64,000 bases of DNA, taken from positions 310,001 to 374,000 of the forward strand of contig JAQGDQ010000083.1 of assembly GCA_030141605.1 (NCBI GenBank), written 5' to 3'. The notes under the pieces are model-generated. The model saw only the letters and a program-made list of their open reading frames with translations. It searched no databases and was not told the DNA's origin. Both the position numbers and the translations under genes were made by a program. Below are positions 29,001 to 36,398 of this stretch, one piece after another. Position 1 is the first letter of the stretch, and every line of letters starts with the position of its first letter. The stretch is from Tubiluchus corallicola. Lineage: Eukaryota; Animalia; Priapulida.

Positions 29001-32000
29001 ATAAATTGGTACCCTAAAGTAATTGGACCCTAATTTTAGTAAGGTATCCTTTGATAAGGATTTCTTGTTAAGTGAATTTATACGCACTAGATGTATGAAT
29101 ATCAAACTTACACAACACAGCATATCCAAATTTCCAAAAAGACACTCTGGCTCAGCAAACATAAGAAACCCTTCCACCTGGCATTTTTTTAACGGTTCCA
29201 TAAATACCTAAAATAATAAAAAAGTCATTTTTAGCTTTTTTAGAAGCAGCAGCGAACTTCTTCATTAGTCTGCACTGAATGAGAAAGACAGTCTCTCTCT
29301 CTCTCTCTCTCTCTCTCTCTCTCTCTCTCTTTCTCTCTCACTCACTCTCTCTCTCACTCACTCACTCACTCACTCACTCACTCACTCACTCACTCACTCA
29401 CTCACTCTCTCTCTCTCTCTCATTCTGTCACTCACTCGCTCACTCGCTGATTCATTCACTCACTCAAACACCCACTCTCTCAGTCACTCATGCACTCTGT
29501 CTTTCTCTCTCTATCTCTTTCCTCTCTCTGTCTCTTTCTGGATAAGTGAAAAAAGTAATGAATAAGTGAGTGAGTGAATAACGCAATGGAAATAAAGCGC
29601 ACTAATGAATAAATTAATAAATAAATAATAAACCAATAAATGAGTGATGGAAAAATAAATGGGCTAGTTATCATGTCACAGTACTTTCTTTTTGTTACTT
29701 ACTTACTCGAAAAATATTTTTTAAATCAGCAATCTATAAAATATTCTGCAATCAAAACAATTGTCACAGCTGATATTTATTTTACTTTAAAAGTGAATAT
29801 GTTAGAAACAATACTATACATTGACTGTATAAATGCAAGTCAAGCAACCTGGATACCCTGCTTAGCTACATACCTGTTTTAGAACCAGTAAATGATCATA
29901 AAGAAAAACACATTCAGTCTTGAATAAATCCCACACGGCTTGGTGCCTCTTTGGATCACCCTTTAGCAAATTTTTGACGTCACTTTGGGGAAATTCTGCC
30001 AAGAAGTCAGTGTATCGGAGGCTCTGAAATGTAAAAAATTGGCATAACGCATTTTCTTGTTCCTATCCTCATTCTTATTCTTATTCTTGTTCTGACTGAA
30101 CTAAGTCACTTTAAGTCAGTGGTTCCCAAATTTTTCTCGGACCGTTACCCAAATAGGGAAACCCGGTCGTGTCCATTACCCCCCCACCTAGTACTGCTTC
30201 TCCAACTCGAAACCAAAGAAACAATCGTGAACTTTGACTTCTCTCCAGGATCGCACCAGAGATCGTGAGAACGTGCGAATGATGGACCCCATGACACAGT
30301 GTTTCCTGCCGGAGGCAGTCTCTTCAAGAAGAAAACTACGTAAAATGCATTCCGAGCGAAGTTTTCAGATGGGTACCCGTTACCCCCCCCCCCAAAACCA
30401 TATTACCCGGGGGGGGGGGGTAATTTACCCCTACTTTGGGAACCACTGCTTTAATTCAACTAATTAAACATTTTCTCCTTCACAATTATCAAATTAGGCT
30501 GGTTAAATACTGATGATAAAAATAATGACAGTGATGACGGTTAAGCGTATGGCGATGATGATGATGGTGATGGTGGTGATGATGACGATGATGGTTGATG
30601 ATGATGATGACGACGACGACGACGATAATGATGATGATGATGGTGATGGTGGTGATGATGACGATGATGGTTGATGATGATGACGACGACGACAACGACG
30701 ACGACGACGATGATGATGGTGATGGTGGTGATGATGATGATGATGGTTGATGATGACGACGACGACGACAACGACGACGATAATGATGATGATGATGTGA
30801 TGACCACAGCAACGGATAATCATGATGTTAACAATAATGGTGGTGGTGGTGGTGGTGGTGGTGGTGGTGATGATGGTCGTGATGATGTTGGTGGTGGTGG
30901 TGGTGATGGTGGTGATGGTGATGGCGATGGTGATGGTGATAATAAGGAGAAAGAGCAAGAGAAAAAAGAAGAAAATGTTGACTGGGTCACTTATACTAAA
31001 CAATGAATTATTTGATATTTAAAGAAAGCACAGCCTATACCTTGTACTTCGCAAAATGTGCATCCATAAACTCAGTCTCTTTTAAACTGGCAAGAAAATC
31101 TTCCAGTACTAATTCTTCTTTTCGACTACCAGATTTCTCAAACTATAAAAAGAAAACAACTATTTGGAAATCACCGCGAGAATAACCATTATAATAACAA
31201 AAATTACTTTCCCCTGGTGTACCTGTTTTGGTTTATTTTTTACAAAAAAAAATCCAAAACAAACGGACAGTGATAGTTTGGTGTTCGAATCTCAAGAATT
31301 CTGTAACCTGGATGTTTTGTACATATTATCCCAATCAACGTTAGGATTTTTAGAACTAAGCCTTATATTAAAAAGCTATAATCAAGTCACAAAAACAGGT
31401 CGATGGGTTTTATTACAATTTCCTACTGTCACCTATAGTTGAAGGCCACAATTTGCGTCACATGCTTTAAACATTGCCAGTCTGTGACAAATGCAGTAAA
31501 AGAGATAATTTCAATAATTATTGTCAAGTACTGGTTCTACCAGGTCGTGAAGGTCTTACAGGACTTTTGGACAACTTTAACTTTCCCAGGTATTTCGGCC
31601 TCAGTAGTATAGATGTTTTGCCTCTGGCCGATTTCCCCACCCCCCCTTTGGCTGCCCGGGGGGGTGGGGAAAAACACCCCTAAAAAAGTGCGAAAATCCG
31701 CGAAAACCCCTAAAAAAGTGTGAAAACCCGTGTGAAAGTGCGCACGTGACCGAAATCGACGAAAAAGCGCGAAAAACAAAGAAAAACGAAGAAAAGGCGT
31801 GTGAAACGAGGTAAAAATTTTGCAGTTTTTCCCTCCCGCATGGCTTCATTTGGATCGAATGACCTTGAACTCTAGGTCACGTGACCAAAGTTCATTGACC
31901 CCTGGATGGCTTCTTTTTTTGACACCCCATTTTAAACCGCGCAAAACCGCGCGAAAGCATGTGAAAGTGTGTGAAAGCGCGTGAAAGTGTGTGAAAGTGC

Positions 32001-36398: not shown

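Follow-up and report, generated by a model that had tools for sequence, protein, structure and literature searches.

A viral-type TBP homologue in a Maverick-ended palindrome of Tubiluchus corallicola, probably a fold-back remnant of a high-copy family

How does a short palindrome that ends like a Maverick and carries a homologue of the TATA-binding protein (TBP) in each arm come to lie in a priapulid chromosome? The locus was analysed within a stretch of 64,000 nucleotides of T. corallicola DNA, which is referred to as the window. Judged from its sequence, the viral-type TBP homologue in this Maverick-ended palindrome is real, and the palindrome itself is probably a fold-back remnant of a high-copy family.

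The palindrome of 4.8 kb, with its AGTAGT...ACTACT ends, two 2.2-kb arms and a 333-bp spacer, was found in the sequence as a preliminary description had outlined it (Table 1). That description had overlooked an 83-N scaffold gap in the right arm, the length of which is close to that of the missing sequence. The element has 49% GC and a CpG observed/expected ratio of 1.29, and the host DNA on either side has 36% GC. Its termini were correctly described as GC-rich and non-coding, with 53% GC and a CpG observed/expected ratio of 1.08 against the 36% GC of the flanks. A poly(A) signal (AATAAA) is likewise present after both TBP copies, as had been stated for each arm. The terminal inverted repeats are present but imperfect, with 4.8% substitutions in the outer 726 columns. 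No further pieces of the element were found elsewhere in the 64-kb window. Both termini contain a palindromic GTCACGTGAC box adjoining TGACCT/AGGTCA half-sites (31860-31885 and 36070-36095), together with CACGTG(AC) boxes. We take these boxes and half-sites to resemble bHLH-ZIP and nuclear-receptor sites, and such motifs could serve as host-factor inputs.

Table 1. Positions of the element, its parts and the adjoining host sequence in the window.
Feature	Position	Strand	Remark
Putative 3´ half of host exon	31560..31602	-	Open 43-nt piece ending at GTAAGA donor, phase 0 to next RhoGEF exon (31142-31041)
Near-palindrome	31603..36361		
Left arm	31603..33800		
Left end motif (AGT)2	31603..31608	+	Maverick/Polinton type; motif described in the available text of PMC8097293
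Left non-coding terminus	31603..32353	+	GC/CpG-rich; 10-bp and 37-bp repeats, palindromic GTCACGTGAC box, TG microsatellite
Two AATAAA poly(A)-like signals	32358..32410	-	After left TBP
TBP-like frame, left copy	32559..33155	-	198 codons; first in-frame ATG 33038 (159 aa)
170-aa ORF, left copy	33089..33601	-	RNase-H-like strand/helix order (DEDD/Maelstrom-like label putative); overlaps TBP frame
Small basic ORF, left	33594..33800	-	3´ part only; fold-back junction separates it from leader
9-bp inverted microhomology, copy 1	33792..33800	+	
Unique 333-bp spacer	33801..34133	+	Parental sequence preceding right cassette; holds end of one frame
Small basic ORF, right	34110..34340	+	No ATG of its own; likely second exon of acidic leader
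Right arm	34134..36361		
9-bp inverted microhomology, copy 2	34134..34142	+	Reverse complement of 33792-33800
DEDD-like ORF, right copy	34333..34837	+	Broken by N gap
83-N scaffold gap	34514..34596		Right arm; left arm has 91 bases at the same place
TBP-like frame, right copy	34771..35367	+	First ATG 34888
Two AATAAA signals	35516..35568	+	After right TBP
Right non-coding terminus	35579..36361	-	Ends in (ACT)2; 4.8% substitutions against left terminus
Putative 5´ half of host exon	36362..36372	-	ATG with A at -3, in frame with left piece across element

The ends assign the element to the Maverick neighbourhood. In the available text of PMC8097293, Mavericks end in (AGT)2//(ACT)2 or (AG)3//(CT)3, and the first of these is the commonest in vertebrates, which agrees with the earlier assignment of the AGTAGT ends to the Polinton type. 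The end motif, terminal inverted repeats (46-1,447 bp in vertebrates), a 6-bp duplication and eight core genes are the features given for Mavericks in the available parts of PMC8097293 and PMC6431247. As portrayed there, Mavericks/Polintons (adintoviruses) share with the present element the (AGT)2//(ACT)2 ends, long terminal inverted repeats, compact intron-poor ORFs and many copies. In contrast, the element measures 4.8 kb instead of 13-25 kb, has neither the 6-bp duplication nor pPolB, integrase, ATPase, protease or capsid genes, and its 2.2-kb inverted repeats include genes and exceed the vertebrate range. The absence of replication, integration and capsid genes, already noted in the preliminary description, was confirmed by an ORF and Pfam scan, which gave no ORF or match for pPolB, integrase, ATPase, protease or capsid within the element. 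The 6-bp target-site duplication, which had been named as a feature of the parents to be sought, was not found here: at offsets 0-3 the ends are bordered by no direct repeat of 3-10 bp, with the N gap lying between these ends. Because the end motif and the inverted repeats are present and the duplication and the core genes are missing, the element is regarded as Maverick-ended and not as an autonomous member.

The TBP-like protein of each arm matches PF00352 with 78.2 bits against a curated cut-off of 22.9 (two stretches, 4e-22), corresponding to two TBP repeats. A PDB search with the protein returned 35 sequences at E up to 1, and all those listed are TBP or TBP-containing chains. TBPs also top both fold searches, though the model is weak (pLDDT 51.5), and in the Atlas the protein lies next to TBP clusters in which viral and nematode members abound, at a recognition score below the bar of the tool. 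Searched with a profile, 1.84 billion representatives yielded 400 matches at E up to 0.001, and the best 150 of these 400 were used. The resulting quick tree holds 149 of 152 rows, with three long proteins left out and one cut to its core, and the host's own TBP is absent from the set. The query joins P0001 (SH-aLRT 98) and then the compact 165-173-aa proteins P0003, P0004 and P0007 (86), apart from canonical-like TBPs, in a long-branched group for which long-branch attraction is possible. These TBP relatives are singletons on contigs of 1-7.6 kb. Recent capture of the host TBP was rejected on account of the 27% identity of the query to the canonical TBP core and of its separate long-branched group, in a set without the host TBP. 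The phylogeny proposed as a check thus does not place the query as a recent host copy, and the term 'captured', used in the preliminary description, is too strong for a TBP that belongs to an old, compact and divergent group.

The DNA-binding face of this group appears altered. At the positions that we read as the four intercalating Phe and the two central Asn residues of canonical TBP, the query keeps three Phe and one Asn; the first N-lobe Phe and the C-lobe Asn are lost. Similar losses are seen in P0003, P0004 and P0007. The YExE(L/I)FP stirrup motif is kept in the group, with YExELFP in the query. The query groups with compact TBP-like proteins that have a predicted altered DNA-binding face.

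The start of the TBP is less simple than its core. About 39 codons of the TBP-aligned frame precede its first ATG; there the frame overlaps the end of the 170-aa ORF, and these codons align to TBP strand 1-helix 1 in a full-length relative. The three differences between the arms in this upstream piece are all synonymous in the TBP frame. In a sister subfamily of about 85% identity, for which 26 of 61 differences are listed, 16 of the 17 altered codons that precede the ATG carry non-synonymous changes, one of them a stop, and all five changes after the ATG are synonymous. The closest of the relatives listed, P0001 (59% identity), is called from the same Met. Either a full TBP would be made via a non-AUG start or splicing, or else a shortened TBP would be made. 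The TBP frame stays open for 344 codons (32559-33593, minus strand), across the whole DEDD-like ORF, and is bounded at its upstream side by the stop codon of the small basic ORF, which shares its frame.

Other viral TBP homologues (Nucleocytoviricota, nimavirus, herpesvirus BcRF1/UL87) also combine the TBP fold with an altered DNA-binding face, and the herpesvirus mimics direct host Pol II to non-canonical TATT promoters, according to the available portions of PMC8360532 and PMC12917281. The TBP described here differs from them as a compact stand-alone protein of <200 aa in a small element, and it is known from sequence alone. By analogy with the herpesviral late factors, the TBP of the parent element, with its predicted altered DNA-binding face and retained YExELFP stirrup, would mark non-canonical viral promoters and steer host Pol II to them. 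A 'TBP' label is already printed in the legend of Fig. 5 on MELD viruses, in a section on non-animal datasets (Starrett et al., PMC8502044; legends of bioRxiv 10.1101/697771), and the term is absent from the available supplement text of that paper. Going by this label, such viruses have in common with the present locus a TBP-like gene carried by a medium-sized linear dsDNA element close to Polintons, and the available text of PMC8502044 discusses neither a function nor a fold-back form for those with TBP. The combination, of which the preliminary description knew no earlier account, is therefore partly anticipated, since the TBP label is in print. A literature search without Repbase and most subscription papers returned no description of TBP in animal Mavericks or of fold-back Mavericks.

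The other genes of the cassette are less clear. Searches of Pfam, NCBIfam, PHROG and PDB gave no match for the 170-aa ORF, none of 52 candidates proved homologous to it, and its DEDD label is putative. Its Atlas look-alikes are unnamed eukaryotic clusters (0.94-0.96), with Maelstrom (0.86) and a 3´-5´ exoribonuclease of Rv2179c-like type (0.78) as leads only, and its single-sequence model (pLDDT 37.5; best fold-search Z 3.8) is too poor for a fold search. In the spacer, an acidic ORF opens with the ATG at 33891. Two phase-0 splice signals accompany it: a donor at 33957 and, before the small ORF that has no ATG, a strong acceptor at 34110. This leader and its splice signals suggest that the cassette may be one spliced, 3´-coterminal unit; in the parent, the leader, the small basic ORF, the RNase-H-like ORF and TBP would form a single alternatively spliced unit with a shared poly(A) site. 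The putative leader and the acceptor of the small ORF belong to the spacer and are oriented towards the right arm alone, leaving the left arm without a leader. A full cassette in both arms, as initially described, was rejected on this orientation, although TBP itself is present in both. Because the left cassette is without a leader, the second TBP copy of the remnant is probably a by-product and not an adaptation.

Relatives of the element are abundant in sequencing data. Four runs (X1 to X4), which represent at most two samples from two studies and one of which may be the source of the window, hold about 70% of the sampled words; two further runs (X5 and X6) hold next to none, which is no proof of absence. 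None of the runs listed is an RNA dataset. Contigs of the four runs were aligned to 31000-34180. Summed contig depth, a rough measure and no copy number, was 1-6 in the flank and 1,441-8,372 in the element for X3, and 162 and 19,130-163,926, respectively, for X4. In X1, 1001 of 2081 pieces are at least 99% alike. Depth and similarity roughly point to a young family with some hundreds of copies or, alternatively, to DNA outside the chromosomes. The sister subfamily of about 85% identity (32979-33391) occurs at low depth in both studies, with contigs in X2 and X4. No related loci were found in viral contigs (searched with TBP, the DEDD-like ORF and two TBP alignments), in metagenome contigs or by the terminal motif. 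Candidates L001 and L002 were rejected as false matches in phage tail-fibre genes, and L003, a large-virus contig with PolB and ribonucleotide reductase and 29% identity to a side clade, was rejected as a parent.

The contigs of the family locate the point at which the element was folded. Contigs with other sequence before 33792 are present in X1 (at least five), X2 (at least one) and X4 (at least three), that is, in two studies and in three of the four runs among the rows listed. Their departure point coincides exactly with the 9-bp inverted microhomology, 333 bp from its partner, and the stretch 33792-34513 contains only two inverted 9-mers, this microhomology and a GAA repeat. Since the family contigs leave at 33792 and the microhomology lies there, the spacer and the right arm are read as the parent's own end and the left arm as an inverted copy. 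The end motif, the longer parent and the microhomology at the turn uphold the earlier proposal of a derivative of a Polinton-type element; the evenly matched arms expected of a single-molecule snap-back and the 6-bp duplication expected of an integrase were not found. The spacer depth at 33996-34102 is neither half of the arm depth nor below it, and most family copies therefore do not look folded back. No contig crossing the fold-back junction was found among those listed.

The divergence of the arms is uneven, with 35 substitutions in 726 terminal columns versus nine in 1355 inner columns (Fisher p 1e-9). This amounts to 4.8% against 0.66%, about a seven-fold difference, and the outer columns also contain several indels. 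A snap-back of a single molecule, as had been suggested, would predict evenly matched arms. Of the eight differences that fall in coding sequence, five are synonymous in the frame concerned. This pattern resembles that of two selected lineages more than the decay of one snap-back. A minor allele at 32496 (about 4-9% of the depth in X1, X3 and X4) and another in a T run at 32438 (about 2% of the depth in X4) are common to both arms. Because a collapsed majority sequence would not yield shared minor alleles, these count against collapse, and a collapsed-consensus origin of the arms was rejected on the shared minor and the private alleles.

In copy-back or snap-back defective genomes and in adenovirus panhandle end repair, a terminus is duplicated by a template switch at a short inverted match, and copy-back genomes keep both origins and lose the interior. 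The present element is likely non-autonomous and derived by fold-back copying from the right end of a Maverick-like parent with many copies. We lean, with rather more confidence than doubt, towards a microhomology template switch in protein-primed replication, maybe between family variants, which gave a linear molecule with two right ends that entered a host exon without the signature of an integrase. During strand-displacement replication, a strand would anneal at the 9-bp microhomology and be extended back through the gene cassette and the terminus. The product would be a linear molecule with two replicable ends that has lost the interior of the parent. Because the termini differ, the switch may have occurred between two variants of the family. 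This molecule would then enter the chromosome without a target duplication, probably inside a host RhoGEF exon. The element departs from copy-back genomes and panhandle repair in that its arm termini are non-identical and its product is chromosomal.

The host flanks are consistent with such an entry. Joined across the element, they give an 18-codon frame from an ATG, 11 nt from the right end, to a donor, 43 nt from the left end. Among 20,000 random host positions, such an ATG occurs in 7.6% and such a donor in 6.7%, and shifting the edges of the element by one or two bases destroys the frame; being post hoc, the test is worth odds of perhaps five-fold. A single exon of the host RhoGEF gene may have been split into these flanks, which would favour a single real locus. 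The left end is entered by a single one of the contigs listed (X3 record 18), which extends from the flank, with no difference, to a depth of 28 letters within the element, under the 31-letter bar. X4 record 25 has two differences in the flank, and its alignment stops at 31602 with 44 further letters beyond. The two records fit a filled and an empty haplotype. Pfam tracing of the host gene across the element, in 98 of 181 candidate frames, found RhoGEF exons only to the left and OTU exons to the right. The RhoGEF gene (19859-31602, minus strand) has a PH exon at 19859-20230, a DH exon at 22735-22959 and three phase-0 exon candidates at 29207-29112, 30023-29874 and 31142-31041 (minus strand).

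Several other histories would leave a similar locus. The foremost, although unlikely, is that the fold-back junction is real and that the sequence to the right of the N gap (34514-34596) belongs to another family copy, mis-joined by the scaffolder. A high-copy family invites such mis-joins, and this one would account for the missing target duplication, the diverged termini and the mostly synonymous arm differences; the 380 bp that precede the gap match the left arm at all sites but one. However, this rate shows no clear difference from the remainder (1/380 versus 8/975), the minor alleles at 32496 and 32438 are common to both sides of the gap, and the flanks read in frame from ATG to donor.

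Scarcely less probable than a mis-join, and still unlikely, is that the palindrome is an artefact at an ordinary copy, either an inverted library chimera produced by amplification or mate-pair fold-back or an error in gap filling. Inverted chimeras arise where short microhomologies enclose a loop some hundreds of bases long. The junction has both properties, the N gap is of a short-read style, the spacer depth gives no folded-back majority, and no contig listed spans the turn. Against this, the junction lies within N-free sequence, the arms are non-identical with common minor alleles, and two complete outward-facing right ends would still need explaining.

A further reading, to which we give a little less weight again, grants the element a function. 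A fold-back of a TBP-bearing Maverick, present in one haplotype in the first coding RhoGEF exon, would give rise to a 1.4-kb hairpin RNA that silences the family via its TBP module. The host promoter would read one arm antisense and the other sense, up to the element's own poly(A) signal, and the target would be the TBP module, a private transcription factor of hundreds of young copies, in a manner like that of Mu killer. On its minus strand the element has AATAAA signals only behind the left TBP. Given a real locus that is transcribed, an RNA started in the host gene would therefore fold into a long hairpin. Mu killer of maize is likewise an inverted duplication of part of a transposon in the available text of PMC1563492, and the element, if transcribed from the host gene, would similarly produce a long hairpin RNA matching a multi-copy family. 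The silencing by Mu killer is experimentally shown in that text, whereas the present element is likened to it by anatomy alone, and the two differ in element type and kingdom.

It is improbable that a deletion mediated by microhomology removed the interiors of two neighbouring copies in opposite orientation, together with the intervening host DNA, and so fused them with no fold-back in replication. Such a fusion would explain the missing duplication, the different termini and the selection-like differences between the arms, but it requires two close insertions, and the two flanks together read as an uninterrupted exon from which no host DNA seems to be missing. Least probable of all is that the parent was a MELD virus without an integrase, or else some linear element whose ends are similar, and that it was captured where DNA had broken: the missing duplication would agree with it, and integrase-less MELD viruses are described in Hydra and a spider (PMC8502044), but the depth and variant diversity fit many endogenous copies and the end motif is the Maverick one.

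With the template switch at the microhomology as the preferred origin, the locus bears on two questions. A self-encoded TBP with an altered DNA-binding face would be a testable answer to how Mavericks, which are without an RNA polymerase, activate their genes, and the window adds a high-copy, apparently young family with such a TBP. A terminus copied back at a short microhomology is a prediction of protein-primed strand-displacement replication, and fold-back remnants of this kind would be fossil evidence for this mode of replication in animals. The locus on its own is a weak example, with the core genes of the parent and the fold-back junction putative.

The window also contains other genes and repeats. 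An OTU deubiquitinase gene, which we take to resemble OTUD3, lies at about 40685-58200 on the minus strand, with its OTU match at 49162-49335, and ends about 4.3 kb to the right of the element. A GH18 chitinase gene (1081-9333, minus strand) has a last large exon with a long His/Glu/Tyr-rich tandem repeat of 14 aa (42 bp), located between the catalytic domain and the CBM_14 chitin-binding domain. Two other inverted-repeat pairs, at 12972-15320 (102 bp at 89%) and 27531-30365 (89 bp at 98%), enclose 2-3 kb each and, with their internal tandem repeats, are probably non-autonomous DNA transposons.
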